From the NCBI GenBank assembly GCA_947177225.1, contig CAMWTS010000007.1:2778-66777 (forward strand): a stretch of 64,000 bases of DNA, written 5' to 3'. Of the stretch, positions 19,969 through 55,104 are shown piece after piece (position 1 is the stretch's first letter; every line of letters begins with the position of its first letter). The position numbers were made by a program, and so were the translations under genes. The DNA is from an uncultured Alistipes sp. (GTDB taxonomy: Bacteria > Bacteroidota > Bacteroidia > Bacteroidales > Rikenellaceae). The notes under the pieces were generated by a model. It made no database searches and was not told the origin of the DNA. It saw nothing but the letters and a program-made list of their open reading frames with translations.

Positions 19969-19982
19969 TGCAGTAATTGGCT

Positions 19983-22884: not shown

Positions 22885-22906
22885 TTTTTATTTAATAATC
22901 TCGCTA

Positions 22907-24608: not shown

Positions 24609-24692
24609 AAGGCAAGCCTTGTGGTTTGTGCGGCTCCCTCTGGGTTGCAGCTGCTTTTTATTCTTCCCTCTATTCGTTCGATGTCTGCGACG

Positions 24693-25655: not shown

Positions 25656-25663
25656 CTTTTTTT

Positions 25664-25844: not shown

Positions 25845-25847
25845 ATA

Positions 25848-27363: not shown

Positions 27364-27428
27364 AATCGAAAATTTTAGGTTAAACATGGATTCGCTGTTT
27401 TCGTCCAATCGGAACCGGGGCAAATAAA

Positions 27429-27482
27429 ACGGGAGATTTCTCGGAGAACAAAAATACTCGTTATCTCCTTGAAATCTCCCGT
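27429..27482. promoter_or_regulatory. Nested stem-loop upstream of the excisionase-like gene
   Basis: acgggagatttc/gaaatctcccgt with an inner ggaga/tctcc pair. Confidence 0.5.
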
Positions 27483-27504
27483 AAATATCTTTTTGGGGCG
27501 GTTG

Positions 27505-28227: not shown

Positions 28228-28231
28228 CTCG

Positions 28232-29038
28232 CTATTTCAGTAGTTTTCTTTCGTCTCCGCTCTCCAATACCTGCATCTGCTGAATGGCTATTCGATTGAG
28301 CTTAACAAGCCGTTCACTCTGCGGCATCTTTTGATCGATGAATACGGCATTGAGATTCTCCATGTTGGACAAACAAATCAACTCGTTGATGGTGGCATAA
28401 TCGCGGATATTGCCTTTCAGATCGGGATTCTGTTCACGCCACATCTTCGCGGTTCTGCCGAACATGGCAACGTTCAGCACGTCGGCTTCATTGGCATAGA
28501 TGATGCTTGCCTGCTTCGCGGTCACTTCGGCGGGAATCAGGTTCTGTTTGATAGCGTCGGTATGAATGCGGTAATTGATCTTGGACAGTTCGCGTTTGGC
28601 ACTCCAGCCGAGCTGCTTCTGCTCCTCTTCCTTTAACCGCTGGAATTCCTTGACTATATACAACTCGAACTCTACGGAAATCCAGCTCGCAAACTTGAAC
28701 GCAATATCCTTGTGGGCATAGGTTCCGCCATAACGCCCCGATTTGGAAACAATGCCGATTGCGTTCGTCGTATTGATCCATTTCTGCGGCGACAAGGTAA
28801 AGGCATTCAGCCCGGCTTCCTTTCTAAACCCCTCGAATTCGAGGGGTTTGAAATCCGAATTATACAAACTCTCCCAAATTCCGAGATACTCGATTGTATT
28901 CCGGTTGCGCAACCAGTTGCCGATCACTGCATTCGGTTCGTCGCTCTTGTATCGAGCTATATCCGTCAGGCAGATATAGTCGTTCGTATTGACCGATATA
29001 ATCGTAACGTTCGTGTCTTTTACCGTAATCTTTGCCAT
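28232..29038 (-). CDS. KilA-N domain DNA-binding protein
   Basis: DYICLTDIAR...NWLRNRNTIEYLGIWE...SKSGRYGGTYAHKDIAFKFASWIS. Confidence 0.9.
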   Translation of the reverse strand: MAKITVKDTNVTIISVNTNDYICLTDIARYKSDEPNAVIGNWLRNRNTIEYLGIWESLYNSDFKPLEFEGFRKEAGLNAFTLSPQKWINTTNAIGIVSKSGRYGGTYAHKDIAFKFASWISVEFELYIVKEFQRLKEEEQKQLGWSAKRELSKINYRIHTDAIKQNLIPAEVTAKQASIIYANEADVLNVAMFGRTAKMWREQNPDLKGNIRDYATINELICLSNMENLNAVFIDQKMPQSERLVKLNRIAIQQMQVLESGDERKLLK

Positions 29039-29106
29039 ATTCGTATTGTCTTAATTGCAAATATACATTAACATTTTGATTTTTAGAAATTATCGAGCGT
29101 TCATCT

Positions 29107-30507
29107 CTATTCCAGAAATCCGATCATCTCGCGCTTCATATCGTCGTCGATATTTCGGTAACGGGCGAAAGCCCGGCTTCCCTCTTTATGACCGCTTAAT
29201 GCACCGACCATATTCGGGTCTTTGACCTTTTTATAGATGTTGCCGATGAACGTGCGGCGCGCCATATGCGACGATGCCACCTCGCATATCGGTTTTTGCA
29301 CCTCCTCCCGTGTCCGCTGGTCCGGTACGGTAATGATCCGGTTCAGTCCGGCGAGCCGAAAAGCCTCTTTGATCTTGCGATTGTAATGTTGTTCTGTCGA
29401 AAACGGGAAAAGGCTTTCGCGCCCTTCCTCGCGGTATTTGTCGATCAGTGCAATAGCCGTTTGGCTTAACGGGACACGGATGGTTATCGGGCGATCTTCT
29501 TTCGTCTTTCTTTGGATATATTCGATCGAATCGCCAATGATATTCCGATAGGTCATTTTGAACAAATCGCTGACGCGACACCCTATGAAGCAGTGAAAGA
29601 TGAAAATATCCCGCTGTATTTCGACTTCCGTATTGTTGGATAAATCGGCCTCGAACAGTTTGGTTCTCTCTTCATTGGTAATGTAGATCGGGGTTCCGTA
29701 AACGATTTCGCCGATGGTAAAATGTTTGAACGGATTGTTCGTCGTATGTCCGTTGTCGATAGCCCATAGGACAAACGCCCGGAAACGGGTCAGCATATCG
29801 GCAACCGTATTCAGCCCTCGCAATTTGGGCATACCTTTCGGAATCTCGTTGCCATCATCGTCCAATACAGGAGGACGTTTTCGTGTCGGAGTTTTGACTG
29901 CGACTTTCGCGGAATAGGGATATTGTTCGTATATCTCAGGATGGCTCAGAAATACAGATTGTTCATCGAACAGGAATGTCTCAATTTGTCCTAGTAACTG
30001 CGATGTAAGGGTTGTGAACGAAAGCGCGAACCCTCGGCTCTCCTCCACCTGCTTGTATAGCTCGAAACGGTGTAGGCAGCGTACCAGCACCCGAAAGTTT
30101 TTCAATCGATTTTCGGACAACTTGTGGGTGGCAAGGTAAATATCTATTACGTCGAAAAAGGACTTTTCGTGTTCTTTCTTCGCTTTGGTCGGTTTGTGGA
30201 ACCGCTTGACGACACCTTGCATATATTCGCGCGTTATGACAGATTTGTCCAATGCGGTATTGATTTCCTGCTCCAGTAGGTCGGTCAAGGCTTTGAGTCT
30301 GGAACGCTTCTCCAAAAGCTGGCCGCGCTCCTCGCCTTGAATCAGCGGAATGTTGATATCGTTCTTTTTGCCCCAGCGTTTGCGGTCAATCCATATTCCA
30401 GAACCGATACGCAAACGGATATCACGCGAAACATAAAGCCGCAGGTTGATTTCCGATTCTCCCGCGCTGTTGGTCGTCCTACCGATGTAGTAGTTCGTCT
30501 GTGCCAT
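29107..30507 (-). CDS. Tyrosine integrase, NBU IntN-like
   Basis: GCRVSD (R), RKTK (K), SHMARR (HxxR), SGHK (H) and ARYR (Y) catalytic motifs; N-terminal arm-binding region. Start at 30507 fits the promoter box at 30526-30533. Confidence 0.93.
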   Translation of the reverse strand: MAQTNYYIGRTTNSAGESEINLRLYVSRDIRLRIGSGIWIDRKRWGKKNDINIPLIQGEERGQLLEKRSRLKALTDLLEQEINTALDKSVITREYMQGVVKRFHKPTKAKKEHEKSFFDVIDIYLATHKLSENRLKNFRVLVRCLHRFELYKQVEESRGFALSFTTLTSQLLGQIETFLFDEQSVFLSHPEIYEQYPYSAKVAVKTPTRKRPPVLDDDGNEIPKGMPKLRGLNTVADMLTRFRAFVLWAIDNGHTTNNPFKHFTIGEIVYGTPIYITNEERTKLFEADLSNNTEVEIQRDIFIFHCFIGCRVSDLFKMTYRNIIGDSIEYIQRKTKEDRPITIRVPLSQTAIALIDKYREEGRESLFPFSTEQHYNRKIKEAFRLAGLNRIITVPDQRTREEVQKPICEVASSHMARRTFIGNIYKKVKDPNMVGALSGHKEGSRAFARYRNIDDDMKREMIGFLE

Positions 30508-30525
30508 ACCTCGATTTCTTTGTTT

Positions 30526-30533
30526 CAAAGGTA
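30526..30533 (-). promoter_or_regulatory. -7 promoter box for the integrase
   Basis: Minus-strand TACCTTTG. Confidence 0.65.
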
Positions 30534-30833: not shown

Positions 30834-31580
30834 CTACTGTTCGCCCGTGCGATTGTAGATGAAGCGTGCCAGGCCGTAGACGTAACGGCGGAAGCCCGGA
30901 CGATAGGCCAGAAGGCGGCGGAACCACTCCATATGGCGGGAGAGGGTTTGTACGACGACTCCCACGTAGATCATGGCGAAGAGTGTGCCGACGCCGATTA
31001 TATGCCACTGCCATGACCCGAAAAAGGCGTAGCAGGCGATAACGCCCAGCAATACCAGCGATATGTCGACGCATATTTTTACTTTCGGGAAAGCTATGCC
31101 CGTCACGCGGCTGACTGCAACGGGAAATCCCTCGCCGGGCATGGTAACGCTGCCGCAGCACACCTCCAATGCGATGCCTGCACCGAGAATCGTACAGCCG
31201 GCCACCTGTGCGGCGATCTGCTGCCATAGAGCTTCGGGGACGAGCCACGAGGTGAGTTGCATGTTGACATCGATCAGAGCTCCGAAAAAGAAGCCTATGA
31301 CGAGCTGGAACAGCTGCACCCACTCGAAACGGCGGCGCAACACGGCGATCTGCCCGAAGACGAGTATGAAATTCATTATATAGGTGTATTGCCCTATGCT
31401 CAGAGCCGGTACCATCGACTCGCGGCCGGCACTCTCGAAGACGTAGGGGAGTACGCTTATGACGCTCGAACCCAGCATCGACCGCACGCAAACGGCGACG
31501 CCGACTGTCATTACGAACAACGAAAAAAGCAGCAGCAGATGCTGCCAGCAAAACGGGATAATCTTATCTTTCATCTTCAC
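30834..31580 (-). CDS. YczE/YyaS/YitT family membrane protein
   Basis: Multiple TM helices; LGSSVISVLPY, SIGQYT, QLVIGFFFGALID, GVGTLF. Confidence 0.85.
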   Translation of the reverse strand: MKMKDKIIPFCWQHLLLLFSLFVMTVGVAVCVRSMLGSSVISVLPYVFESAGRESMVPALSIGQYTYIMNFILVFGQIAVLRRRFEWVQLFQLVIGFFFGALIDVNMQLTSWLVPEALWQQIAAQVAGCTILGAGIALEVCCGSVTMPGEGFPVAVSRVTGIAFPKVKICVDISLVLLGVIACYAFFGSWQWHIIGVGTLFAMIYVGVVVQTLSRHMEWFRRLLAYRPGFRRYVYGLARFIYNRTGEQ

Positions 31581-31604
31581 TGCACTCTGTTTGGCGCAGC
31601 AAAT

Positions 31605-33422
31605 TTACGAAAAATATTCGATGATTGCGCGCGCCTTGGCAGCACCGACCACCTCGGCGAGCTGCTGCTCGGAGGCTGCGCGTACGGCCGACAGCGTTCG
31701 GAAATGGCGCATGAGTGCCGTCACGCTCTTTTCGCCGATGCCCGGAATATGACTCAGCTCGCTGTCGATGAATGCTTTGCTGCGTTTCTGGCGGTGGAAG
31801 GTGATGCCGAAACGGTGTGCTTCGTCGCGTATGTGGCACACGACCTTCAACGGTTCGCCCGTGCGGCTGAGATAGTAGGGCATGGGGTCGTCGGGGAAGA
31901 ATATCTCCTCGATGCGCTTTGCCAGACCCACGATCGGCACGCGGCCGGCGATACCCAGTTCGCACAACACGCCGTATGCGCTCGACAGTTGTCCCTTGCC
32001 GCCGTCGACGATTATCAGATCGGGCAGCTCGGCACCCTCGTCGAGCAGGCGCGAATAGCGGCGGCGCACAATCTCGCGCATCGAGGCGAAGTCGTCGATG
32101 CCGACCACCTCCTTGATGTTGAAGTGCCGATACTCCTTGCGGGACGGCTTGCCGTCGCGGAATACGACGCACGATGCCACTGGGTTGGTGCCTTGCAGGT
32201 TGGAGTTGTCGAAACACTCTATGTGCCGCGGCTGATGCGACAGATGCAGCTCCTTCTGCATGGCGTTCATCAGACGTTCGGTGTGCCGTTCCGGATTTTT
32301 GATTTCGAGATTCTTCATCGCCTCGGCACGATATATACGCGCGCTTTTCAGCGAGAATTCGAGCAGTTCCGCCTTTTCGCCGCGCTTGGGTATGGTGAAG
32401 GTCACGCCGTCGAAGAGCAGTGCCGCCGTCGGCATCACGGGTACTATTACCTCGCGCGACAGCTCGCCGGCGATGGTCTCGACGATATGGCTTATGGCGG
32501 CCGAGAGCAGATCCTCGTCGGCGGTATCCACACCGGTCGACATGCGCACCGTCTGCACGGCCACTATCGAGCCGTGACGCAGGCGCAGGAAATTGCAGTA
32601 GGCCACGTCGTCGTCGACAAGCAGCGAGAATACGTCGCAGTCGACTATGCGGGCGCTGACTATAACCGAGCGGGACTGATAGTTGTCGAGTGCCGCAAGC
32701 CGCGACTTGCAGCGCTGTGCGGCTTCGAACCGAAGCTCTTCGGCTGCCCGCATCATCTCCTGCTCGATGTGTCGGCGTACGGGGCGCAGGTCGCCTTTGA
32801 GTATCGATTGCACCAGCGATATGCTCTGGGCATACTCCTGCTCGCTCTGCGCTCCGATGCACGGAGCCTTGCAATTGCCGAGATGATATTGCAGACAGAC
32901 GCTGTAACGTCCGCGCGCGATGGCCGATGGCGATAGGTTGAGCTTGCACGTGCGCAGCGGTATCACCTCGCGTATGAATTCGAGCAGTGCGTGCTGGGCA
33001 GATATCGATCCGTATGGGCCGTAATATTGAGAGCCGTCGCGCACCAGCCGCCGTGTCGATTGCACGCGAGGAAACGGCTCTTTGCGAACAACGATCCACG
33101 GATATGTCTTGTCGTCTTTGAGGAGTATGTTGTAGCGTGGTTGCAGACTCTTGATAAGCGAGTTTTCGAGCAGCAGCGCGTCCTGCTCCGATCCTACCAC
33201 TATGTGGCGTATCTCGACTATTTGTTTGACCATCACGCGCACCTTGGCCGAATGGTCGCGGCTCTGCACGAAGTATGACGATACGCGGCGGCGCAGCGAT
33301 TTGGCCTTGCCCACGTAGATGATCGTGCCGTTCTTGTCGACGAACTGGTAGACGCCGGGCGAGAGCGGCAGCATCTCCACCTGCCGTTTGAGCGATTGCA
33401 ATATGTCGTCCGAATGGTTCAT
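31605..33422 (-). CDS. uvrC: Excinuclease ABC subunit C
   Basis: PGVYQF...IYVGKAKSLRRRVSSYF GIY-YIG domain, HIECFDNS, PDLIIVDGGKGQL, C-terminal HhH. ATG at 33422. Confidence 0.96.
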   Translation of the reverse strand: MNHSDDILQSLKRQVEMLPLSPGVYQFVDKNGTIIYVGKAKSLRRRVSSYFVQSRDHSAKVRVMVKQIVEIRHIVVGSEQDALLLENSLIKSLQPRYNILLKDDKTYPWIVVRKEPFPRVQSTRRLVRDGSQYYGPYGSISAQHALLEFIREVIPLRTCKLNLSPSAIARGRYSVCLQYHLGNCKAPCIGAQSEQEYAQSISLVQSILKGDLRPVRRHIEQEMMRAAEELRFEAAQRCKSRLAALDNYQSRSVIVSARIVDCDVFSLLVDDDVAYCNFLRLRHGSIVAVQTVRMSTGVDTADEDLLSAAISHIVETIAGELSREVIVPVMPTAALLFDGVTFTIPKRGEKAELLEFSLKSARIYRAEAMKNLEIKNPERHTERLMNAMQKELHLSHQPRHIECFDNSNLQGTNPVASCVVFRDGKPSRKEYRHFNIKEVVGIDDFASMREIVRRRYSRLLDEGAELPDLIIVDGGKGQLSSAYGVLCELGIAGRVPIVGLAKRIEEIFFPDDPMPYYLSRTGEPLKVVCHIRDEAHRFGITFHRQKRSKAFIDSELSHIPGIGEKSVTALMRHFRTLSAVRAASEQQLAEVVGAAKARAIIEYFS

Positions 33423-33567
33423 CACCACAAAGATACAGCAAAAAAGGCGACAATATATCCTCCGTGTCGAACTATTGTTGGATACGGGGTAGATAAATGA
33501 TGCAAGTTGCGGTATATTTATAAAATAATTATTACTTTTGCCGGAAACTATAATCTGTTATCGTTCA

Positions 33568-35147: not shown

Positions 35148-38100
35148 ATGAAGTACTTGTTTCTTCAAGTGCTGTTGCTGCTCGCAGTGGTGAGCGGCAC
35201 ATATGCACAGGTTACGACCTCATCTGTGGGCGGTCGTATTACGGACCATGAGTCCAACCCTTTGATCGGCGTCAGCGTTACGGCCGTTCATCAACCATCG
35301 GGCACGCGCTACGGCGTGGCTACCGATCTATCCGGACAATATACCATTACTGGCATGCGTGTGGGCGGACCATACCTCGTTACGATCAGCTATGTGGGCT
35401 ACACTACGGTCGAGGTAGGCGACATCGAGCTGCTGCTGGGCGAGAGCCGCCGTATCGATGCGGCTATGGAGCCGTCGCTGATGATCGATGCTGTTTTCGT
35501 CACGGCCGACGATACGCAGGGCTTGCAGCATGGCAGCGGCAGCAGCTTCCGTGCCGATAAAATAGCCTCCATGCCAACCATATCACGCTCGATATACGAC
35601 ATTACGCGGCTCTCGCCTCTTACGGGTTCGCCCAAGGCCGGAGGCGTGACTATCGCCGGTGCCAGCACTCGCTACAATTCGTTCAAGATCGACGGCGTTG
35701 TCAGCGACGATGTTTACGGTCTCGGCACAACGGGCATGACCGGTTCGCTGACGCAGGCCAATCCCATACCGCTCGATGCCATCGAGCAGATCCGCGTTTC
35801 TGTGGCGCCGTTCGATGTGCGTGAGGGCGGATTCACCGGCGGTGGAATCAATGCCGTTACTAAGGCCGGCGACAATACGCTGCGCGGTTCGGCCTATGCC
35901 TATTACAACGATCAGAACTTCTACGGCACCACGCCCGGCAGCGATGTCGCGGTGCGCGAGAAGCTGTCGAGCCAGACCACGCAGATCTATGGCGTGTCGT
36001 TGTCGGGACCTGTCGTGCGCGACAAACTGTTCTTCTTCGTCAATGGCGAGTATAATCGCAACGTAATACCGTCGGCCTATCACCCCGGCGAGGCGGGTTC
36101 GGCCGTCACGGCCGAACAGGCTCGTGTCATAGGCGATAAATATGCCGAGCTTACCGGCTGGAACAGCGGCGGCTACGGCCGTCATGATGCACCTGCCATG
36201 TCGGGAGCTTTCATTGCGCGTCTCGATTGGAATATCGATTCGACGCATCACATGTCGCTGCGCTACAACATGCTGCATGCCGATAAGAACGACACCTCCA
36301 ACTCGTCGCAATACTTCTATTTCACCGGAGCCGAGTACACCAATATCAACCGCATGCACTCGCTGGTAGCCGAGCTTAATTCGACATTTTCGTCGTGGAG
36401 CAATATCCTCCGCGCAGGCTATACCTATCTGCGCGACGGTCGCGAGACGGAGCGTCTGCTGCCGGCGGTAATCATCACCGGTACCGGAGCGTCTTCTAAC
36501 GGTACGACTGTGCTGGGAACAAACCAGTATGCCGGTCAGAACATGCTAAAACAGAACATATTCATCATATCCGACAATGCCAGCATCTATCTTGGCGACC
36601 ACACGCTGACCGTCGGCACCCACAACGAATTCTATACGGCCGACAACCTCTATCTGAGCAATGCTGCCGGCACATATACATACTCTTCGATCGACGATTT
36701 CCTTGCCGAGGGCGACGGTCTCGGAGCGCACGCTTCGCAATATGCCTACAACTACTTCATCGATCGCAGCGGCTCGGCGGCCAAATTGTCGAGTGCGCAG
36801 CTGAGTCTGTATGTGCAGGACAACTGGCGCCGCGGCGATCTGTCGCTTACCTACGGTCTGCGACTCGACATGCCGCTTCTGTTCTCGTCGCCGCGCACCA
36901 ACGATGCCTTCAACAGCAGCAGCTTTGCCGAGAAATACGGCGTGCGTACGGGCGACGTGCCGCGTGCGCAGGTGTTGTTGTCGCCGCGTGTGGGTTTCAC
37001 GTGGCATCACGGCGATCTTATGCTGCGTGGCGGTGCCGGCGTATTTACCGGCAGCGTACCGTTCGTATGGCTCAACAACTGCTACCAGAATACCGGTCTT
37101 ACGCAGTTCGGTTTGACGGTCAATGATCCCTCTCAAACACCCGCATTCAGTCTTACCCCCTCGCAGCAGGGTGTGGTGGGCAACCCATCGATCGATGTCG
37201 TCGACAAGGATTTCCGCTTCCCGCAGGTGTTCCGTGCCAACCTGGCTGCCGAATACGATCTCAGCGGCTGGAAGTTCTTGGTCGAGGGACTCTACACCAA
37301 GGGCATCAACAATGTCGTTTACCGCAATCTGGTGGCCGAGCAGCAGGGGCTGTGCCTGTTTATGGCCGATACCGATTCGCCGTCGGCTCCCTACTATACG
37401 TCGGATACGGGCGACTACTCGGCGGTATATCGTCTGTCGAATACCCGTCGCGGTCATTCGTGGTCGGTTTCCGGACGCGTTGAGCGCAACTTCCCATTCG
37501 GTTTGAGTTTGATGGCCGCTTACGCATATTCGCAATCGAAGAGCGTCAACGACGGCATTTCGGCTCAGGGATCGAGCAACTGGGGACGCACCTATGCCGT
37601 CGACTCAAACTCTCCCGATCTGTCGTACTCGGTCTACGATTTCCCCCACAAGGTGGTGGCCATGGTCTCATATACGCGCCGTTACGGATTGTTCGGCACA
37701 ACAGTTACACTGGTCTACGACGGCCATTCGGGCGAACGCTACTCGATGACCTATGCCCGCGGCCGCGTCGATGAAAACGGAGATACCTATCGCGGCAATA
37801 CACTTATGTATATACCCACGCGCGAGGAGATGACGCGTACGCTCTGGGCAGATGCCACATCGCAGCAGGCGTTCGAGGAGTATATCGAGGCCGACGACTA
37901 CCTGCGGTCGCACCGCGGCAGCTTTGCCGGGCGCAACTCGCATCTTCTGCCGTTCGAGCATCGGCTCGATCTGCATGTGGCGCAGGCGTTCTATTTCAAC
38001 CGTCGCGATTCGCGTCGTGTGGAGCTGAGTCTCGATATCATCAATTTGGGCAATCTGATCGACCGCAGCTGGGGTGCCTCCTACCTGACGAGCAACTGGT

Positions 38101-38243
38101 CGCTGTCGCCGGTCACCGTGACTGAGTTGCAGGCCGTCGATGGCGGCTATCGTCCGGTCTACAAGTTTACGGGTGCGTCTCCCACGCGCGACGACATACT
38201 CTCGCGCTGGCATATGCAGCTTGGAGTGAGAGTGGTGTTCTGA
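35148..38243 (+). CDS. TonB-dependent receptor, Oar-like, with an N-terminal carboxypeptidase-regulatory-like domain
   Basis: Signal peptide, GRYTI..MRVGGPY, IPLDAIEQI, GGFTGGGINAVTKAG plug region, C-terminal QLGVRVVF. Confidence 0.88.
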   Translation: MKYLFLQVLLLLAVVSGTYAQVTTSSVGGRITDHESNPLIGVSVTAVHQPSGTRYGVATDLSGQYTITGMRVGGPYLVTISYVGYTTVEVGDIELLLGESRRIDAAMEPSLMIDAVFVTADDTQGLQHGSGSSFRADKIASMPTISRSIYDITRLSPLTGSPKAGGVTIAGASTRYNSFKIDGVVSDDVYGLGTTGMTGSLTQANPIPLDAIEQIRVSVAPFDVREGGFTGGGINAVTKAGDNTLRGSAYAYYNDQNFYGTTPGSDVAVREKLSSQTTQIYGVSLSGPVVRDKLFFFVNGEYNRNVIPSAYHPGEAGSAVTAEQARVIGDKYAELTGWNSGGYGRHDAPAMSGAFIARLDWNIDSTHHMSLRYNMLHADKNDTSNSSQYFYFTGAEYTNINRMHSLVAELNSTFSSWSNILRAGYTYLRDGRETERLLPAVIITGTGASSNGTTVLGTNQYAGQNMLKQNIFIISDNASIYLGDHTLTVGTHNEFYTADNLYLSNAAGTYTYSSIDDFLAEGDGLGAHASQYAYNYFIDRSGSAAKLSSAQLSLYVQDNWRRGDLSLTYGLRLDMPLLFSSPRTNDAFNSSSFAEKYGVRTGDVPRAQVLLSPRVGFTWHHGDLMLRGGAGVFTGSVPFVWLNNCYQNTGLTQFGLTVNDPSQTPAFSLTPSQQGVVGNPSIDVVDKDFRFPQVFRANLAAEYDLSGWKFLVEGLYTKGINNVVYRNLVAEQQGLCLFMADTDSPSAPYYTSDTGDYSAVYRLSNTRRGHSWSVSGRVERNFPFGLSLMAAYAYSQSKSVNDGISAQGSSNWGRTYAVDSNSPDLSYSVYDFPHKVVAMVSYTRRYGLFGTTVTLVYDGHSGERYSMTYARGRVDENGDTYRGNTLMYIPTREEMTRTLWADATSQQAFEEYIEADDYLRSHRGSFAGRNSHLLPFEHRLDLHVAQAFYFNRRDSRRVELSLDIINLGNLIDRSWGASYLTSNWSLSPVTVTELQAVDGGYRPVYKFTGASPTRDDILSRWHMQLGVRVVF

Positions 38244-38473
38244 CGCCGCATCTCGCCGTGGCGGTGACGTAATATCGGCGTAAGCCGACAGGCTGCCTGT
38301 CTGTTTTTGCGGGGCGATTCGATGATTTGTCATCGGGTCGCCCCGATTTTGTCGATTGAAAAAGTTCGATTTCTCGCACTTTTTCCCGCCTCGGCATAGT
38401 TCGAACAAGTTCGGCACTGCCCTCGGCTTAATGAAAAAGTTGTTTTATTTGTTGTATTGTCTGTAAATTTTTA

Positions 38474-38481
38474 TACCTTTG
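38474..38481 (+). promoter_or_regulatory. -7 promoter box in front of the cobalamin riboswitch
   Basis: TACCTTTG immediately 5' of the riboswitch P1 helix. Confidence 0.7.
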
Positions 38482-38485
38482 TCTT

Positions 38486-38666
38486 CGCTTAGGTTCTCCG
38501 CAGGCTGCGCAAGCCTGCATGAGATTAAAAGGGAAACGGGTGTGAATCCCGTACAGTTCCCGCTGCTGTAATTTCCGAAATGGATTTGCGACACTCTAAG
38601 CCACTGACTCTTGCTTTGAGTTGGGAAGGCGTCGCAACCGGAATAAGTCAGAAGACCTGCCGAGCG
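38486..38666 (+). ncRNA. Cobalamin (B12) riboswitch
   Basis: aaaagggaaacgggtgtgaatcccgtacagttcccgctgctgtaa core, gccactg...tgggaaggc, and a 3' B12 box aagtcagaagacctgcc; P1 cgcttaggt/acctgccgagcg. Confidence 0.92.
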
Positions 38667-38858
38667 ATTGTAACGAGATTCGTGCCTGCGGTGAACGGGA
38701 CGGTCGGAGACTTTTTAGTTTCACGGATATACTTTATGTCGGAAGATGTCGGGGCGCATGGAGTGCGTCGTCGATAGCCGAAGCGGGGTAGTCGGAGGTA
38801 GGTTTCTCGTCGCGAACAGTAACTTTTTTAACAAACATTAGTATAAAAAATTTACGCG

Positions 38859-41216
38859 ATGAAAAAACTTCTGACTATTGTTGTCTGCACGTTTGCGCTT
38901 GCTGCGTGTCAGTACGATGACAGCGAATTGCGGCAGTCGATAGGCGATCTGACGGATCGTGTCGAGGCCATCGAAGGCTCGGTGGGCAGTCTCAATTCGC
39001 AGATTTCCACTATCCGCGAGTGTCTCGATGCACTCTCGGCCGGAAAGGTGATAATGAAGGTAACCCCGACCGATGCCGGCTACGATCTCACCATGAGCGA
39101 CGGTTCGGTCATCTCGATTCTGAACGGCCGCGACGGCGACAAGGGCGAGCCGGGAGACAAGGGCGATGCGGGTGACAAGGGTGATACCGGTGCCGCCGGC
39201 GAGCCCGGCCATACACCCGTTATCGGTGTTAAGCAGGATAGCGACGGTCTCTACTACTGGACTGTCGACGGTGAGTGGCTTGTCGACGGCGAAGGCAATC
39301 AGGTGCTTGCCGAGGGTCGCAACGGATCGGACGGCCAGACCGGACATACGCCTGTCATAGGTGCTGCCAAGGACGACGACGGAGCATATTACTGGACTGT
39401 CGACGGCGAGTGGCTCGTCGACGGCGAGGGCAACAAGATCAAGGCTTCGGCGGAGGATGCGGCAGAGTCGTTGTTTGCGAGCGTGGTCGAGCGCGACGAT
39501 GCGGTTGTCATCACGCTGACCAGCGGAACTGTGCTGACACTGCCCAAACTGACCGATGCCGCCATAGAGTGGGTCGATGATGCCGACTACAACTCATACT
39601 ACGGCGACAGTCAGCCGATAAAGATCAATACCGAAAATATCATCTCGGCTACGGTTACGGCTCCTTACGGTTGGACGGCATCGGTCAATCTCACCAAGGG
39701 CGAGGTCAACGTTACGGCTCCCTGGGTGGATCTCGATGTCGAGTATGATGGTTACATCTCGGTTATCGCCGTTACGAAGAGCAACGTTCCCGTGACCATT
39801 TCCAAGCGTGTGACCACGAGCTACGATATCACCGATGCCGCCAAGGCGCACGATCTTCTGCTCAATGTCATACCCGAATATGCCTCGGCGGCCAATCCGT
39901 TCAATGCCGTGTTCAATATCACCGAGCCGCAGAACTCGTATTGCAATGTGGCCATGACCTCTCTGACGGCCGATGCCGTACCTACGGTGACGTTCAACTT
40001 CATGCAGGGCGGTACGGGTCAGGTCAACATAGGCTCGTCGTCGATGACTTATTCTGGCGAGATCTATATTAATATAGGTGAGGGGTACGAGCTGACCATG
40101 AGCGGCAATATCAACTGCCCCAAGGGTTCGGTTATTCTCTCAGGCCGTTACAACGCCTCGTTCGGTCCCTATTGCGGTTTGTGCTTCATCACCGAGGGTT
40201 CTTACGTAAAGCAGTTCAATTTCCGATACAATACCGTCAAGCTCATCAACTGCGGTACGATCGATACGCTCAATGTAACCGTTACGGCCGAGGCTGTCAA
40301 CTACGGTACGATAGTCAACATCATCGACAACAACGACCGTCTGACGATTGTTCCGGTGCGCAACATGTCGAAATCATCGTCGAAGTTCATATCGAAGGTC
40401 ATCGAGTTCAACCCTGCACCGGGTCAGTACGGTTCGGGCAACTACTCTTCGCAGAGTGCGGCTCAGGGCATCGTGGGCAAGAGCGGTATGGTGTCGCTGG
40501 GTATGTTCGGCGGTTATATCGTCTTCCAGTTCGACCACTCGATCATAAATCTGCCCGGAACGGACTTCGTCATAGGCGGTAACCCTATGGCTACGTCTGC
40601 CGAGCCGGGAGCCGTCATGGTATCGTTCGATGCCAACGGCAACGGCATTGCCGACGACGAGTGGTATGAGTTGAAGGGCAGTCTCTACGATGCTCCGGAG
40701 ACAGTGCACGACTACTCGGTGACCTATCGCAAAGATACCGATAACAACTGCATACGCTGGACGGACAATCAGGGCGAGGAGGGTACCATCTCATGGAACG
40801 GTGCCAACAAGTCGCTTGCGTGGTGGCCTAAGGATAATCTCTCGGACGAATATACGCTTACGGGCAACAAGCTGGGAATCGTCACCATGTGGAACGCTTC
40901 GGATCTGTTGCAGGGACTGACCTACGGTTATGCCGACGTGCTCACCGACGACTACAATACGGTCATCGGCGGTGACAACGACACCAAGGGCAACAAGTTC
41001 GACATCTCGTGGGCTGTCGACAAGGACGGCAATCCGGTGAAGCTGCTGGCTGTCGATTTCATCAAGGTCTACAACCCGGTATTCGCCATCGACCACAACT
41101 ATCCGTCTTTCAACGAGGTGTCTACCGAGGTGTGCAAAGGCGTGTCGTTGACACCCGCCAATCTGCCTGCCCTTATGAGCGGCATCGGCGACTGGCAGAA
41201 CGGATCATCATTCTAA
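38859..41216 (+). CDS. Surface lipoprotein: coiled coil, collagen-like repeat, PL29-N/DUF4988-like repeats and a C-terminal 'cell surface protein' (BtuH-like) domain
   Basis: Lipobox FALAAC; 10 GXY triplets; two YYWTVDGEWLVDGEGN repeats; C-domain KVIEFNPAPGQY...SLGMFGGYIVFQFDH...AEPG...DDEWYELKGS. Confidence 0.8.
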   Translation: MKKLLTIVVCTFALAACQYDDSELRQSIGDLTDRVEAIEGSVGSLNSQISTIRECLDALSAGKVIMKVTPTDAGYDLTMSDGSVISILNGRDGDKGEPGDKGDAGDKGDTGAAGEPGHTPVIGVKQDSDGLYYWTVDGEWLVDGEGNQVLAEGRNGSDGQTGHTPVIGAAKDDDGAYYWTVDGEWLVDGEGNKIKASAEDAAESLFASVVERDDAVVITLTSGTVLTLPKLTDAAIEWVDDADYNSYYGDSQPIKINTENIISATVTAPYGWTASVNLTKGEVNVTAPWVDLDVEYDGYISVIAVTKSNVPVTISKRVTTSYDITDAAKAHDLLLNVIPEYASAANPFNAVFNITEPQNSYCNVAMTSLTADAVPTVTFNFMQGGTGQVNIGSSSMTYSGEIYINIGEGYELTMSGNINCPKGSVILSGRYNASFGPYCGLCFITEGSYVKQFNFRYNTVKLINCGTIDTLNVTVTAEAVNYGTIVNIIDNNDRLTIVPVRNMSKSSSKFISKVIEFNPAPGQYGSGNYSSQSAAQGIVGKSGMVSLGMFGGYIVFQFDHSIINLPGTDFVIGGNPMATSAEPGAVMVSFDANGNGIADDEWYELKGSLYDAPETVHDYSVTYRKDTDNNCIRWTDNQGEEGTISWNGANKSLAWWPKDNLSDEYTLTGNKLGIVTMWNASDLLQGLTYGYADVLTDDYNTVIGGDNDTKGNKFDISWAVDKDGNPVKLLAVDFIKVYNPVFAIDHNYPSFNEVSTEVCKGVSLTPANLPALMSGIGDWQNGSSF

Positions 41217-41237
41217 CGGTAAAAAATGTACAAAGCA

Positions 41238-43073
41238 ATGAAAAGATACATCATATACGCCCTGCTCGGCTGTGCGCTCGTGCTCGGCAGCTGTGCAAAA
41301 GATTTCGATACCGATTCTCCTGCTCCCGTCGTTCCCGACAACCAGGAGGGCATAATACCTATGTCGCTCACCATGTCGGGCGAGCAGGCGGCAACGCGTA
41401 CCGATATGGTCGGCAACCGCGTACTGTGGAACGAGAACGATCGTCTGGGTATATTTTCGCCCGAAGCCTACTACGAGTGGAAGATGTCGTTCTTGCCCGA
41501 CAACCTCTATTACAACAATCCGGTCAACAACGTCTGCATGGAGATCGGGTCGGGAGCCGGATCGGCAGCCGCTACGTTCAAGATATCGTCAGTTTATGAG
41601 GGCGATACACCCGAATACACCGGTCGCTGGGGCTGGAACACCAAGAGCGAGCAGCTCAATTTCTACATGTATTATCCCTATCAGGAGGCGGCCAAGGCTG
41701 CTACCAAGCCCACGGCTCTGCCCTTTACGCTGCCTTCGGCTCAGAAGCAGAGCGGATCGGACAATACAGGCCGTTTCTCGGAGTACGATCTGGTATATGC
41801 CTCTACCGTGCTCGATCTGCCGGCCGAGGCTGCCGACAAGTCGGTCATAGAGGATAATCTGATATTCGATTTCGACCACGCTTTCGCCGTGTTGAAGATT
41901 ACGGTCGGCAACTACACGGCCGGTGCCGCCACGGTCACCGGAGTACGCCTCGCATCGGGTGATGGTCAGCCTTTGGCCGGCAACTTCACTCTCGACCTTA
42001 CCACGGGCAGCCTGACATCGGGACAGACGATCGATGCTTCGGGTGCTGTTGTCGAGGGTGTGTCGTCAAGTTCTGTGACTACGACCTTCGACGAGGGTGT
42101 AGAGGTTGCGCGTTACCAGTCGGCCGTATTGTATCTGTTCGTCAATCCGGTCGATCTCACCGCCACCGATACCAATGTGCTGACCGTCTATACTACCGAC
42201 GGTTACCAGCAGTTCGCGTTCAAGGCTTCGCGTGCCTTCGAGCCGGGCAAGATCTACACGCGCTCGCTTACGGTGCGCGAGTTGGAGACTTATCCGACGG
42301 CTACGCTCGATTTCGAGAGTGTCGATGCCAAGTATCTTGCCGGTCAGACATCGTATGGCGCCAACCTCTATAATGCCGAGAAGGACAAAACATCTTACGA
42401 GGGCGACCAGTTCATATCATACACCGATCCTGCAACGGGTCTTGTGATAGGCATCAACGACTACAACGATACTTATGTCACCATGTCGACCTACAAGAGC
42501 TTCTTCGGCGGCGGCCTGGCCATATCGCAGTGGAACGACATGACGCAGAACAGCTATCTCAACCAGTGCAGCGTATATTGCAAAGACGCTTCGACGGGCA
42601 AGGGCGGCGCCGACGGTTCGTCGACATTCGCCGTGGCCTACGGCTACGACGACGGCAGCGCATACAGCACCGACAACCGTTCGTCGTTCTACTTCGCCGA
42701 GGCGGGACGCGAGGCTGTCATATCGTCGCTCTGCGTATGCAATACCACCTATGTCCATCTCTGCCTGAAAGACGGCAACAGCTTCTCGACACCTATGTCT
42801 TACGACAAGAACGACTACTTCCGCGTGACGTTTACGGGTATCGACGCCGCAGGCGCCCAGACTGGCAGTGTGGCATACTATTTGGCCGATTTTCGCACGG
42901 AGTCTGCTCCCGGCATAGCCGAGGGCTGGAACAAGGTCGACCTCTCGCCGCTGGGCAGCGTGCACAAGGTCGTTATCAATTTCGAGGGCAGCGACAGCGG
43001 TGAGTATGGGCTTAATACGCCGGCTTACTGCGCAATAGATAATATCGAAGTGCGATTTACTTCGGTAGAGTAA
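41238..43073 (+). CDS. Fimbrillin (type V pilin)-like lipoprotein fused to a C-terminal DUF4465 (BtuJ-like) domain
   Basis: Lipobox LVLGSC; AATR-TDM...W.ENDRLGIF and FDHAFAVLKITV fimbrillin motifs; C-domain ATLDFE...NTTY...YYLADFR...GWNKVDLSPLG...GLNTPAYCAIDNI. Confidence 0.82.
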   Translation: MKRYIIYALLGCALVLGSCAKDFDTDSPAPVVPDNQEGIIPMSLTMSGEQAATRTDMVGNRVLWNENDRLGIFSPEAYYEWKMSFLPDNLYYNNPVNNVCMEIGSGAGSAAATFKISSVYEGDTPEYTGRWGWNTKSEQLNFYMYYPYQEAAKAATKPTALPFTLPSAQKQSGSDNTGRFSEYDLVYASTVLDLPAEAADKSVIEDNLIFDFDHAFAVLKITVGNYTAGAATVTGVRLASGDGQPLAGNFTLDLTTGSLTSGQTIDASGAVVEGVSSSSVTTTFDEGVEVARYQSAVLYLFVNPVDLTATDTNVLTVYTTDGYQQFAFKASRAFEPGKIYTRSLTVRELETYPTATLDFESVDAKYLAGQTSYGANLYNAEKDKTSYEGDQFISYTDPATGLVIGINDYNDTYVTMSTYKSFFGGGLAISQWNDMTQNSYLNQCSVYCKDASTGKGGADGSSTFAVAYGYDDGSAYSTDNRSSFYFAEAGREAVISSLCVCNTTYVHLCLKDGNSFSTPMSYDKNDYFRVTFTGIDAAGAQTGSVAYYLADFRTESAPGIAEGWNKVDLSPLGSVHKVVINFEGSDSGEYGLNTPAYCAIDNIEVRFTSVE

Positions 43074-43105
43074 TGTTTTATAGAGTTTTTTAAGTTGAAG
43101 TGAGA

Positions 43106-43144
43106 GGGCGGGAGACTGCATGGACGGTCTCCCGCCCGATTTTT
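43106..43144 (+). terminator. Terminator of the riboswitch operon
   Basis: 11-bp inverted repeat gggcgggagac/gtctcccgccc followed by T5. Confidence 0.75.
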
Positions 43145-43292
43145 ACGAGGCCTCGCCGGCTGTCGAGATGTGCCGGTCGTGGGCTGTCTTCTCCGATTTA
43201 TGAAAGATTGTTGATAAAAAGTCGGAGAACTGCGGTAGCGGGTCTCTTTATTTGTCTACTTTTGTGGGCAACATAATATAAAACCCGTTGCT

Positions 43293-46766: not shown

Positions 46767-46922
46767 TATTGTGCCGCGCCATTCGAGCATAAGCGAGAAA
46801 TCCGTGTGCGATTATCTCCATCGTCATATCGCTATGGTTGAGGTATGTATATTAAAAAAAAGAGTGCGCCGCGAATATCGGCACACTCTCTTGTTGTCCT
46901 GAGTCGGAACGATCCGCCCCAA

Positions 46923-47864
46923 TTATTTGTTCTGCGACAGATCGGCGATGGCCTTCTGTGCAATGGCCACCTTGTCGCCGGCAGTTACCTTTTTCATCAC
47001 CTCGATGGTCTTCTCGGGATTGTTCTTGCTGTTGTAGGCCATACCCAGCAGATAGTAAACATCGCTCTTGTCCTCCTCGGTGGGCTGAACGGCGGCAGCC
47101 TCCTCGGCCAGCTCGATCACCTTGTTGTAGTCCTTCTTGCCGAGGTATGCCTGCAAAGCGATCTTCTTGCCCAGAGCCTCGTTGTCGAGCTGCTCGGCCA
47201 TGGCGATGATGCCGTCGTAGTCGTTTGCCATCTGCAACTTGGCAACCTCGTTGTTGGTGTAGAGGCTCATCTTTGCGCGAGCCTCGGCGATAGCCTCGCC
47301 GTATTTGGTCTCGGGCAGTTTCTCGATATCGGCGCAGATGGCCATACCCTCCTGGTAACGGTCGCTCTTGAAGTAGCTCTCGGCAAGGTTCAGTGCCATG
47401 TCCGTATTGCGGGGGTTAGCCTCGTATCCCTTCGAGAATACCTCGATGGCCGTAGCGTAGTCGCCCGAATTGAATGCGTCGGCACCCTGGGCCTGATATA
47501 CGTTGGCAATGGTCTGCTTGGCCTTGGCGGCGGCACGGGCGTTGTCGTAGAGCTCGGCCATGTCGGCAGCCTGCTGCAAGTTGGTCAGAGCCTCCTCATA
47601 GTTGCCGGCAGCGGCGGCAGCCGTACCCATGTTCTGATAGCATACGGGGATAAAGGTCTTCGACTTGGCCACGATACCCTGCACCGTAGCGTCTTCCGAA
47701 TCGATACCCTCGTCTACAACCTTGTTGAACAGATCCAGGGCTTCGGTGTAATTCTTGGCTTTTGCGGCAGTCACCGCTTCATTGAACGTGGTCACTATCT
47801 CAGACTGTGCGAAGAGCGACACCGAAAACAGAAGCGCAGCCGCGCTTAAAAATAATCTTTTCAT
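46923..47864 (-). CDS. Exported tetratricopeptide repeat protein
   Basis: Signal peptide MKRLFLSAAALLFSVSLFA; helical repeats (GNYEEALTNLQQA, GDYATAIEVFSKG). Confidence 0.85.
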   Translation of the reverse strand: MKRLFLSAAALLFSVSLFAQSEIVTTFNEAVTAAKAKNYTEALDLFNKVVDEGIDSEDATVQGIVAKSKTFIPVCYQNMGTAAAAAGNYEEALTNLQQAADMAELYDNARAAAKAKQTIANVYQAQGADAFNSGDYATAIEVFSKGYEANPRNTDMALNLAESYFKSDRYQEGMAICADIEKLPETKYGEAIAEARAKMSLYTNNEVAKLQMANDYDGIIAMAEQLDNEALGKKIALQAYLGKKDYNKVIELAEEAAAVQPTEEDKSDVYYLLGMAYNSKNNPEKTIEVMKKVTAGDKVAIAQKAIADLSQNK

Positions 47865-47950
47865 AATCGTATGTTTCAATTTTTAGGATTTACGATATAA
47901 ATCTATATAAGTGCAAATTTAAACTTTTTTTTTCATATTTCAAAACACCG

Positions 47951-50251: not shown

Positions 50252-50538
50252 ATCTGTATATTCATATGATAACTACGGGGTCGCATATCTTGTGCGACCC
50301 CGTATCGTTTTTGTCGTCATGGGTGTATATTCATTTTGTGGATAGATATGAAAAAATCTCGGAAAAATTAACGTCATGACTTCGAACAACTTTGGAAAGA
50401 GAAAAAAATAGATTATATTTGTGAGAATTTATACTCGTTTGCAGCTGTTTGACTGACGAATCGTCACAAAATGCGGGCGGGTAAGAGTGTGCGGATTGAA
50501 AAAACGATAATTACAAAATATTAAAAACCGAATAGACT

Positions 50539-51153
50539 ATGGAAAACAACAAACTGCAAGAGCTTACTCAAAAGCTCTACAACGACGGCTTGGAGAAGGG
50601 TCGTGCCGAGGCCGATGCGCTCGTTTCGGAGGCTCGTCAGCAGGCCGCAAAGATCGTTTCGGAGGCTAAGGCCGAGGCCGAGGCACTGGTCAAGGCCGCT
50701 GAGGCACGTTCGAAGGACATCGAGAAGAACACCATGACGGAGATCACTCTGGCGGGTCGTCAGGCCGTAGCCAAGATCAAGACCGAGCTTGCCGAGGCCG
50801 TCATCATGAAGTCGACGGGCAAGGCTGTTGAGGGTGCTGTGCTCGATGCCGCATTCATCAAGGACATGCTGCTTGCAGTAGCCAAGAACTGGTCGTCGTC
50901 ATCGTCGGACATCTCGCTTGCTGCGCTCCTTCCGGAGGCTCAGCGTGCCGGTCTCGACGCTGCCATGCAGGCCAGTGCCAAGGAGCTGCTCGACGCAGGT
51001 GTCGAGGTCGGCTACTCGGCCGAGGTCAAGAACGGCTTCAAGGTGGGTGCCAAGCAGGGCGGCTACTATATCTCGTTTACCGACGAGAGTTTCGATGCTC
51101 TGTTGAAGGAGTATCTGCGCGACAAGGTTGCCAACATGCTGTTCAACGAGTAG
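50539..51153 (+). CDS. ntpE: V-type ATP synthase subunit E
   Basis: KLQELTQKLYNDGLEKG coiled coil; first gene of the V-ATPase operon. Confidence 0.85.
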   Translation: MENNKLQELTQKLYNDGLEKGRAEADALVSEARQQAAKIVSEAKAEAEALVKAAEARSKDIEKNTMTEITLAGRQAVAKIKTELAEAVIMKSTGKAVEGAVLDAAFIKDMLLAVAKNWSSSSSDISLAALLPEAQRAGLDAAMQASAKELLDAGVEVGYSAEVKNGFKVGAKQGGYYISFTDESFDALLKEYLRDKVANMLFNE

Positions 51154-51156
51154 GCT

Positions 51157-51993
51157 ATGTTCTCCAAGAATTATTATTGTCTGGTAGCCGGGTTGCGCGA
51201 ATGGACCCTCGACGCCGATACCAAAGGTTTCGACGCCAAGGCCATCGTCGGGGAGATACTCGAAGATCTGTCGGCCGGCGATGCCGAGGCCGTGCGCCTT
51301 CTGCATACCGGTTACGACTGTCAGAATATCATCGCCCGTCGTGAGGGACGCACCTATCACAATCCGCTGGGCAACCTTTCGCCCGACCAGGTGGAAGAGG
51401 TTCTCGGCGGCCGATACGATGCGCTGCCCCGATCGCTGGCTGCCGTTATGGCGGCTTATGCCGATCCGGAGGGCGAGCACGCCGAGTCGATAGATGTCGA
51501 ATCGCGTTTCGAGAAGAGTCTCTTCGAAGCATATTATGCCGAGCTTGCCGCATCGAAGTGCCGTTTCCTCAGGGAGTGGGGCGCATTCGACCGCAATCTG
51601 CGCAACATCGCCGCTGCGGTGGCAGCACGTGTCGCGTCGCGTCCTATCGACGAAGTCGTGGTCGGTTCGGGCGATGTGGTGGAGCAACTCGTACGTTCGT
51701 CGGCAGCCGACTTCGGCCTGCGCGGCGAGCTGCCTTATATCGATTCCGTCATTACGGCCATAGCCGACGAGAGCGATCTGGTGGAGAAAGAGCACAAGAT
51801 CGATCTCATACGCTGGAATCAGGCAGATGAACTTAGTGTGTTCGACTATTTCAACATCAACACCATACTCTCTTATATCGTCAAGGTGGACATCGTGGCG
51901 CGTTGGAGCGTGCTCAGCCCCGAAAAAGGCCGCCAGATGCTCGATCGCCTGATGAGCGAGCTGGACGCAAAGGAACTTGTGAATAAACAATAA
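51157..51993 (+). CDS. DUF2764 family protein (probable V-ATPase subunit C equivalent)
   Basis: YYCLVAGL N-terminus, FLREWGAFDRNLRNI; sits between subunits E and A. Confidence 0.8.
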   Translation: MFSKNYYCLVAGLREWTLDADTKGFDAKAIVGEILEDLSAGDAEAVRLLHTGYDCQNIIARREGRTYHNPLGNLSPDQVEEVLGGRYDALPRSLAAVMAAYADPEGEHAESIDVESRFEKSLFEAYYAELAASKCRFLREWGAFDRNLRNIAAAVAARVASRPIDEVVVGSGDVVEQLVRSSAADFGLRGELPYIDSVITAIADESDLVEKEHKIDLIRWNQADELSVFDYFNINTILSYIVKVDIVARWSVLSPEKGRQMLDRLMSELDAKELVNKQ

Positions 51994-52008
51994 AACTACG
52001 ATAAACTG

Positions 52009-53766: not shown

Positions 53767-53775
53767 GCAAGCAGT

Positions 53776-55095: not shown

Positions 55096-55104
55096 CGCAA
55101 CGAT

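Follow-up and report, generated by a model that had tools for sequence, protein, structure and literature searches.

Competition for cobamides shapes gut communities. In Bacteroides, the canonical btu loci place btuB and btuG under a cobalamin riboswitch together with btuH or btuJ, and the BtuH and BtuJ proteins are surface vitamin B12 binders that feed BtuG and BtuB (PMC8941943; bioRxiv 10.1101/2025.07.01.662609; PMC13398666; PMC13616437). In this work, we will focus on a pair of lipoprotein genes, gene 1 and gene 2, carried by a 64,000-nucleotide stretch of contig CAMWTS010000007.1 (hereafter the window) from an uncultured Alistipes of gut metagenomes. This pair is most likely an accessory of the Btu system, i.e., a B12-riboswitch unit encoding two lipoproteins that present a BtuH-type and a BtuJ-type head on long stalks. 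It follows the regulatory logic of the canonical btu loci and draws on the same protein families. Unlike those loci, it stands by itself in the lineage of the window, as a transcription unit of two genes that includes no transporter, whereas the loci of a sister lineage are canonical btu apart from two extra stalked genes at their 5' end.

The closest described relatives of gene 1 are BtuH2 (BT1956; 7BIZ) and the C-terminal domain of BtuG1 (BT1490; 8BLW), with which it shares a homologous C-terminal globular domain. Gene 1 and the BtuH family are also alike in being lipoproteins with an acidic export signal, in their riboswitch control, and in keeping the residues Q333 and N399 of BtuH2 and a calcium-site motif. 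A variable N-terminal module (PKD, beta-propeller or none) is already a known trait of the BtuH family. Gene 1 differs from BtuH2 by a front of about 500 amino acids (aa) made of a coiled coil, a collagen-like run, DUF4988 repeats and an Ig-like and beta-rich region, by the replacement of H476 and W577, and by a 21-aa tail. In this genome, it also lies outside any btuB operon, whereas over 80% of btuH homologues are found in btuB operons (PMC8941943). The relatives of gene 2 are BtuJ1 and BtuJ2 (BT1491/BT1957; 9FCT, 9QPM, 9I2L, 9HMU), with which it has in common the jellyroll head, the lipoprotein nature and the B12 riboswitch; these are single-domain proteins of about 230-300 aa, in contrast to gene 2, which adds a type V pilin-fold module of about 320 aa in front. 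In the BtuH and BtuJ literature that was searched, no mention was found of the coiled coil-collagen-DUF4988-BtuH arrangement, and a search by term for fimbrillin, Mfa, and pilus or pilin gave none in two of the papers on these proteins. BtuH proteins with variable N-terminal domains and single-domain BtuJ proteins are already published and the core function is predictable from this work, while the architecture of the pair is new. Three of its features go unexplained: a pilin module that is strongly conserved and carries the Arg motif, the tail of gene 1 and the free-standing organisation.

We consider it likely that the pair is a cobalamin-riboswitch-repressed accessory module of Bacteroidota Btu cobamide uptake. 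When intracellular cobamide is low, the leader would permit the expression of both lipoproteins, which would be flipped to the cell surface, a location expected because acidic residues of the lipoprotein-export type follow the lipidated Cys in both. The BtuH-type head of gene 1 would stand on the coiled coil, the collagen-like spacer, the DUF4988 repeats and the Ig-like and beta-rich middle, and the BtuJ-type jellyroll of gene 2 on its two-domain type V pilin-fold module. Both heads would capture free cobamides at some distance from the outer membrane and plausibly past the capsule, and these would be handed down a relay from BtuJ/BtuH to BtuG and then BtuB, with BtuB and BtuG presumably encoded elsewhere in this genome.

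A cobalamin riboswitch in front of two lipoprotein genes

The original prediction on this locus, made from the sequence alone, described a full cobalamin riboswitch with a -7 promoter box, exactly two lipoprotein genes and a terminator, with no btuB, btuG or btuFCD in the transcript, and all of these elements are recovered here (Table 1). The Rfam match covers the full model (1-189), far above the gathering score of 31.5 bits, with the B12 box AGUCAGAAGACCUGCC aligned, and the 64 kb contain no other cobalamin element. The open reading frames (ORFs) and their Pfam matches reveal no btuB, btuG or btuFCD inside the two-gene unit. As the unit is riboswitch-controlled and has no transporter of its own, the cobamide would likely go to a BtuB encoded elsewhere, as had also been proposed. 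The gene that precedes the riboswitch (35148-38243, 1031 aa) encodes, as had been read, an Oar-type receptor (CarboxypepD_reg and OMP_b-brl_4 in Pfam).

Table 1. Features of the two-gene unit, its boundaries and the likely integrative island of the same window (positions of the window; aa numbering of gene 2 is that of the 611-aa form).
Feature	Coordinates	Strand	Description
Promoter motif	38448..38481	+	TTTG -33 box, 22-nt spacer, TAccTTTG -7 box at 38474-38481; consensus match only
Cobalamin riboswitch aptamer, RF00174	38473..38678	+	cmscan 96.8 bits, E 6.7e-23
Leader / expression platform	38679..38858	+	180 nt
Post-aptamer box CCTGCGGTGAACGGG	38685..38699	+	Conserved; probably part of the expression platform
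Gene 1	38859..41216	+	785-aa lipoprotein, stalked BtuH-type; ORF, Pfam, PDB matches
Gene 1 aa 22-60, heptad coiled coil	38922..39038	+	Read from sequence
Gene 1 aa 90-119, collagen-like run	39126..39215	+	10 uninterrupted G-X-Y triplets, script count
Gene 1 aa 120-235, DUF4988 repeats	39216..39563	+	TPVIGxxxDxDGxYYWTVDGEWL twice; Pfam PF16378
Gene 1 aa 236-503, Ig-like domain and beta-rich middle	39564..40367	+	Family-specific
Gene 1 aa 504-764, BtuH-type domain	40368..41150	+	phmmer, profile, Foldseek
Gene 1 aa 765-785, C-terminal tail	41151..41213	+	21 aa, ends GxGxWxNGSSF-COOH; family-specific
Gene 2	41238..43073	+	611-aa lipoprotein; 615 aa if started at the upstream ATG at 41226
Gene 2 aa 39-357, type V pilin-fold (fimbrillin) module	41352..42308	+	Foldseek
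Gene 2 aa 393-606, DUF4465/BtuJ jellyroll	42414..43055	+	PF14717, 158.6 bits vs cut-off 25
Terminator-like hairpin	43106..43147	+	Including T-run; 13-bp stem, 10 G-C; end of the unit
Two terminator-like hairpins	38287-38301, 38310-38345	+	3' of the Oar-type receptor gene; upstream boundary, outside the unit
Island hsdR	14578-17790	-	Type I restriction-modification
Island hsdS	18703-19989	-	Type I restriction-modification
Island hsdM	20802-22328	-	Type I restriction-modification
Island Toprim/zinc-ribbon primase	24693-25655	-	
Island DUF5906 protein	25848-27134	-	
Island KilA-N protein	28232-29038	-	
Island phage-type integrase	29107-30528	-	

The promoter was located by a pattern search of the window with the Bacteroidota two-box motif TTTG-N17-23-TAnnTTTG, and its TAccTTTG box lies on the 5' edge of the aptamer. 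Seven matches were found, as compared with 0.54 expected from shuffles, and four of them could be placed before a called feature, namely three tRNAs and the cobalamin riboswitch. The six other matches lie at 4796-4826, 5079-5110, 13566-13597, 47914-47944 (-), 50391-50421 and 63905-63935 (-); three of them are just upstream of tRNA genes, of which the window has three, and one precedes a V-type ATPase cluster (50539-57566). Since the motif is enriched in the window and other copies sit upstream of tRNA genes, the copy in front of the pair is a credible promoter, while still being a consensus match. At the other end of the unit, the terminator stem (43106-43137; -34 kcal/mol, z -3.4) is followed by GATTTTTACG, then by guaB and guaA; like the promoter, this terminator is a consensus-type prediction.

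The leader downstream of the aptamer carries the conserved box of Table 1. The exact pattern CCTGCGGNGAACGGG is found once in each of 15 pair-carrying loci (L001-L006, L008, L010, L011, L014 and L089-L093), 5-9 nt past the Rfam match where this distance was measured; 78 further loci that were retrieved lack it, DUF4465 proteins being encoded in many of them. The box CCUGCGGNGAACGGG may be a lineage-specific element of the expression platform. In the minimum free energy fold, the start codon of gene 1 is buried in a predicted 8-bp helix that pairs 38807-38814 (UCGUCGCG) with 38855-38862 (CGCGAUGA), and an equivalent pairing (CGUUGUG/CAUGAUG) can be seen by inspection in the leader of L001. A scan of the leader gave no intrinsic terminator on the plus strand, for which reason transcription attenuation is not proposed. 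The leader without a terminator, the conserved post-aptamer box and the AUG in a predicted helix together suggest that the OFF switch is probably translational.

Heads and stalks of the two lipoproteins

That a domain of B12-binding type ends each stalk had also been anticipated, and profile and structure searches now assign these domains to the BtuH type in gene 1 and to the DUF4465/BtuJ type in gene 2. The case is the strongest for gene 2. Its start at 41238 is favoured by the orthologues and by the database gene call, its lipobox LGSC is followed by AKDFD, with C19 invariant, and its AlphaFold2 (AF2) model has a predicted local distance difference test (pLDDT) of 82. The head covers positions 3-176 of the 176 of the DUF4465 profile (E 2.6e-46) and matches BtuJ2 (9i2l) by phmmer (6.5e-23), by profile (3.5e-35) and by Foldseek (E 7e-20, target template-modelling score 0.80, root-mean-square deviation 3.2). 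It is modelled as an augmented beta-jellyroll with a pLDDT of about 85-95, and it also superposes on BtuJ1 and on the Coraliomargarita DUF4465-B12 complex. In BtuJ2, the residues Y73, Y75, Y167, N208, N291 and Y295 form hydrogen bonds with cyanocobalamin (PMC13616437). In both pairwise and profile alignments, gene 2 keeps five of these six (Y73, Y167, N208, N291 and Y295) and has Ala in place of Y75; across 17 gene 2 orthologues, the positions of Y73, N291 and Y295 do not vary. Eight of eight divergent DUF4465 proteins that were tested bound B12 (PMC13398666). Because of these eight proteins and of the five contacts that are kept, the binding of cobamides by gene 2 is a well-founded inference from its sequence.

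In front of this head, the module of gene 2 is recognised by Pfam as Mfa_like_1 (8.7e-15, 55.8 bits vs a cut-off of 27), and by Foldseek as a type V pilin fold, the matches being 3t2l (1.8e-12), 4k4k, 3ufi, the tip pilin BovFim1C (4eps), Mfa4, FimA, Mfa3 and Mfa2. Its first strand (39-48) is followed by T53-R54-T55 at the position of the pilin maturation site; T53 and T55 are invariant among the orthologues, and R54 is present in 16 of 17, the remaining one having Lys. Two motifs of the pilin module, GIFSPEAYYEW (aa 71-81) and TGRWGWNT (aa 128-135), which correspond to about 41448-41642 of the window, are near-invariant down to 40% overall identity. These aromatic-rich motifs may mark an interaction surface, their conservation being above what would be expected of a passive spacer.

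The head of gene 1 is homologous to residues ~315-593 of BtuH2. It matches BtuH2 (7biz) with 2.7e-31 by phmmer, 8.1e-49 by profile and 3.7e-16 by Foldseek, and the C-terminal domain of BtuG1 (8blw_B) with 5.6e-32, 3e-53 and 4e-13, respectively; Foldseek recovers both despite a poor model of gene 1. In BtuH2, B12 is contacted by Q333, N399, F401, H476, Y510, W511, W577 and L578 (PMC8941943). The two contacts to the nucleotide loop (phosphate and ribose), Q333 and N399, correspond to Q523 and N575 of gene 1, which are both invariant in the family, and the motif DANGNGxxDDEWYEL is kept. F401 is Met in gene 1 and Phe in its orthologues. From these alignments, cobamide binding by gene 1 is likely, but not assured.

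Beyond the head, gene 1 ends with the tail of Table 1, whose W779 and C-terminal Phe or Leu (W-x-x-G-x-x-F/L-COOH) are kept in all 15 orthologues and whose pLDDT is below 50. The four other BtuH-domain proteins whose C-termini were inspected have no such tail. Candidate roles are those of a docking or donor peptide, or of a segment that folds back on the altered B12 pocket.

The N-terminal part of gene 1 starts with the lipobox LAAC followed by QYDDSE, an acidic signal of the export type in which C17, Y19, D20 and D21 are invariant among the orthologues. The coiled coil has 11 heptad positions with strict 3-4 spacing (L24 I28 L31 V35 I38 V42 L45 I49 I52 L56 L59), is rich in Ile and Val, and appears in AF2 as one long helix of low confidence. 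Residues 1-94 match the N-terminus of the BT3328-family profile of NCBIfam, far below its cut-off, and neither gene product has an NCBIfam equivalog. The collagen-like run is followed by a second one of four G-X-Y triplets (aa 153-164); Pfam Collagen scores 21.4 bits, below its cut-off of 27.2. Across the orthologues, the run comprises 3-11 triplets at shifting positions and is the least conserved segment of gene 1 (0.36 identity), as would a length-variable spacer. The DUF4988 repeats have a Pfam E-value of 6.9e-29, and the gene 1 family profile (window 38979-39500) matches residues 4-185 of the GH98 structures 9h6f, 9h6g and 9h6h (E ~2.4e-17 to 3e-17), so that the structure of this module is already solved.

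Indeed, residues 1-235 of gene 1, i.e., its first ~230 residues, are a module shared with the BT3328 family and with these GH98 proteins, and found in over 200 Bacteroidales lipoproteins whose heads are unrelated (LRR, BACON, Big_2, lyase, hydrolase); the cargo particular to gene 1 is a B12-binding domain. In NCBI, this module goes under the name "PL29 family lyase N-terminal domain". The publications that mention DUF4988 are, to judge from title and abstract, not about this module, its function or its oligomeric state. The original prediction saw in the pair a candidate cobamide-capturing pilus or fibre, a claim that finds no support in gene 1: judging from its relatives, its N-terminal module appears to be a generic display stalk, not a polymer, and this stalk is probably trimeric. 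The middle region that follows is modelled with a pLDDT of mostly 80-93, has only generic Ig- and cadherin-like matches in Foldseek, and matches no Pfam or NCBIfam family. An exhaustive search of 1.84 billion proteins gave five representatives at E<1e-30, which delineates a small family of its own, in addition to weak repeat matches.

Genomic contexts of the pair and of its domains

The riboswitch-gene 1-gene 2 module recurs in about 10 further sequence-distinct Alistipes-type loci. Full-length relatives of gene 2 form at least 16 other protein clusters at 90% identity, such counts being lower bounds, and when 185,579 species genomes were scanned, three of the 80 best loci had a full-length gene 2: Alistipes putredinis, an uncultured Alistipes and a Marinifilaceae metagenome-assembled genome. 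The distant form of gene 1 is a full-length orthologue (38% identity, E 5e-166). Wherever the DNA sufficed, gene 1 and gene 2 were adjacent and in the same order, with the Marinifilaceae locus, L007, as the sole exception. Each of the 12 related loci that were scanned has a Cobalamin riboswitch (82-102 bits) in front of gene 1 or, for L007, of the short ORF that takes its place. This 136-aa ORF (9559-9966 of L007) lies between the riboswitch and gene 2, at the usual place of gene 1, and resembles the Ig-like domain of gene 1 only faintly (E 0.003). Either a remnant or an unrelated small protein may be encoded there.

In five loci (L004, L006, L010, L091 and L011, which is from A. putredinis), the pair opens an operon in which btuG, a PKD_3 gene and btuB come next. 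There, BtuG is a DUF5074 propeller, BtuB is a 683-aa receptor with Plug and barrel, and the PKD_3 protein (~583 aa) is BtuH2-like by its position and PKD repeats only. Both btuB and btuG were found downstream of the pair in L004, L006, L011 (frameshifted) and L091, and the contig of L010 ends after btuG. As they have the same neighbourhood, these five loci represent one lineage, the Alistipes putredinis group. Since this sister-lineage operon runs into btuG, the PKD_3 gene and btuB, the pair belongs to the Btu system and is no separate invention. In four other contexts, the pair stands alone between unrelated genes: in the window and L008/L009; in L001-L003; in L014 and L089/L090; and in L092/L093. 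The claim that the unit is an orphan thus stands for these four contexts and fails for the one lineage with the full operon, and the orphan status seems to dissolve once relatives are compared. From these arrangements, the pair appears to be a detachable accessory module of the Btu system, either attached to the transporter operon or free of it. In L089, the genes for the two subunits of methylmalonyl-CoA mutase and for MetH, which are B12-dependent, lie at 815-4816 and 17820-21461, within the 10 kb flanking the stand-alone pair.

These comparisons also bear on the Oar-type TonB-dependent receptor that adjoins the pair, and which could be an unconventional cobamide importer served by it. It is found directly upstream of the pair in the window and in L001/L002, and also upstream, at a distance, in L008/L009. 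We regard this partnership as extremely unlikely and rejected it as a candidate. Indeed, the receptor gene is set apart from the pair by two terminator-like hairpins and the promoter-riboswitch region, which places it outside the control of the riboswitch. Four called genes are inserted between them in L008/L009, five in L009, which suggests that the adjacency reflects lineage-specific synteny and not function. The receptor adjoins the pair only in the lineage of the window: it is not beside it in L014, L089, L092 or the full-operon loci, and these last have a normal 683-aa BtuB.

The domains of the pair are found in other combinations. A DUF4988 stalk, an Ig-like domain and DUF4465 occur in one chain in P0018, P0123 and P0125, and DUF4988, PKD and a BtuH domain in P0216 and P0220, which suggests that stalks and heads have been shuffled in nature. 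An 841-aa protein of Candidatus Symbiothrix sp. (P0246) combines a BtuH-type domain, DUF4465 and two Fn3 domains in one chain, and its C-terminal end carries what we take, by eye, to be a type IX secretion system sorting signal. Because this protein fuses both types of heads, a Rosetta-stone-type argument can be made that the two act together.

Elsewhere in the window, a likely integrative island (13621-30528) lies beside a tRNA gene (13621-13704), and all its listed genes are on the minus strand (Table 1). Three ORFs, at 31564-33453 (-), 46845-47849 (+) and 23062-24399 (-) (629, 334 and 445 aa, respectively), had no Pfam match, and the first two had no NCBIfam match either.

Weighing the evidence and its meaning for Alistipes

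Several observations weigh against an accessory module of cobamide uptake. No btuB or btuG was found among the ORFs scanned in the 64-kb window, so the recipient transporter is assumed. A run search found the window sequence in three gut-metagenome DNA runs only, and in no RNA runs. The AF2 model of gene 1 (mean pLDDT 62.7, from an alignment of 15 sequences) is poor outside residues 240-500, with low values for the stalk and for most of the BtuH domain. In this domain, the corrin-side contacts of BtuH2 are changed, H476 into Lys and W577 into Ser, and the loop of Y510 and W511 is shorter and poorly aligned. With several corrin-side contacts not conserved, cobamide binding is less certain for gene 1 than for gene 2. 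The last of these points concerns the pilin module of gene 2, which is conserved like the head (0.68 vs 0.67) and has the pilin Arg motif; to judge from the alignment, this constraint exceeds what a passive spacer would need.

The loss of H476, of W577 and of the Y510/W511 loop would fit a reading in which the ligand of one head or of both has changed, whether to another tetrapyrrole or to corrinoid-loaded proteins, or in which they have become adhesins, the riboswitch merely co-regulating them with the need for B12. We hold this to be very unlikely given that gene 2 keeps five of the six BtuJ2 contacts, that all the divergent DUF4465 proteins tested bound B12 (PMC13398666), and that a riboswitch controls the pair in every case, one lineage having it in the same operon as btuG, the PKD_3 gene and btuB.

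The constraint on the pilin module relates to another alternative, in which gene 2 is a true type V tip pilin: it would be cut at R54 and lose its lipid, its groove would take a donor strand, supplied either by a stalk pilin whose gene lies elsewhere or by the tail at the C-terminus of gene 1, and the BtuJ head would sit at the tip of a fibre. Gene 2 does share with tip pilins such as BovFim1C (BACOVA_04982), BfrT and BunT, which are diversified by diversity-generating retroelements, and Mfa3-5 of P. gingivalis the lipobox, the first beta-strand followed by Arg (here the T-R-T motif, at the position of the pilin cleavage site), the two-domain fold (Foldseek matches to 4eps, Mfa3, Mfa4 and FimA) and a ligand-binding domain placed C-terminally to it. 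Bacteroides cleaves such proteins at Arg, as in BfrT at R43 (bioRxiv 10.1101/2024.11.15.621889), and conservation is as high in the pilin N-terminal domain of gene 2 as in its head. The conserved, disordered tail of the gene 1 orthologues, otherwise unexplained and absent from the four other BtuH proteins, would find a use here. Unlike tip pilins, whose genes normally stand at the ends of anchor-stalk operons, gene 2 has no anchor or stalk pilin nearby: none was found in the unit, among the scanned ORFs of the window, or in the 10 kb around the pair of any related locus. Its head is a cofactor-binding jellyroll and not a lectin-like adhesin, and the Arg motif is a family-wide feature. Many Mfa_like_1 lipoproteins are, to our knowledge, not known to polymerise, which counts against the tip-pilin role as well. 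A polymerised B12 pilus, as had originally been suggested, is thus not supported by the gene content, and we consider a tip-pilin role unlikely. The same low probability is given to two forms of fibre, either a minimal type V-like one of two components, with gene 1 as a lipid-anchored and probably trimeric base whose tail inserts into the cut gene 2, or a conventional pilus encoded elsewhere and capped by gene 2. The two-component fibre would stack the BtuJ head past the BtuH head as a riboswitch-induced cobamide relay through the capsule. If true, either form would be unprecedented among type V pili in capturing a nutrient or cofactor.

The conserved Arg site of gene 2, which would free the protein from its lipid, could also serve a release of the pair, by cleavage or by packaging into outer-membrane vesicles, as soluble scavengers or hoarders that withhold cobamides from competitors instead of relaying them at the surface. 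BtuH2 has been found in supernatant fractions (PMC8941943), B. thetaiotaomicron B12-binding lipoproteins are reported to go into extracellular vesicles (PMC12751083), and BtuJ1 has been proposed as an extracellular reservoir. The sequence does not tell shedding from surface retention, and long stalks fit anchored display best, so we consider this scenario decidedly unlikely.

Returning to the accessory module for cobamide uptake, the pair means that Alistipes mounts both accessory binding domains on long display modules, inherited as a fixed pair under riboswitch control. This widens the known architecture space of BtuH and BtuJ and suggests selection for a reach that extends past the capsule. 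The DUF4988 module gains a plausible role as a generic stalk. Finally, the pair provides a testable case for type V pilin folds that present nutrient-binding domains, and if the pilin module does polymerise or dock to gene 1, type V pili would gain a new function.

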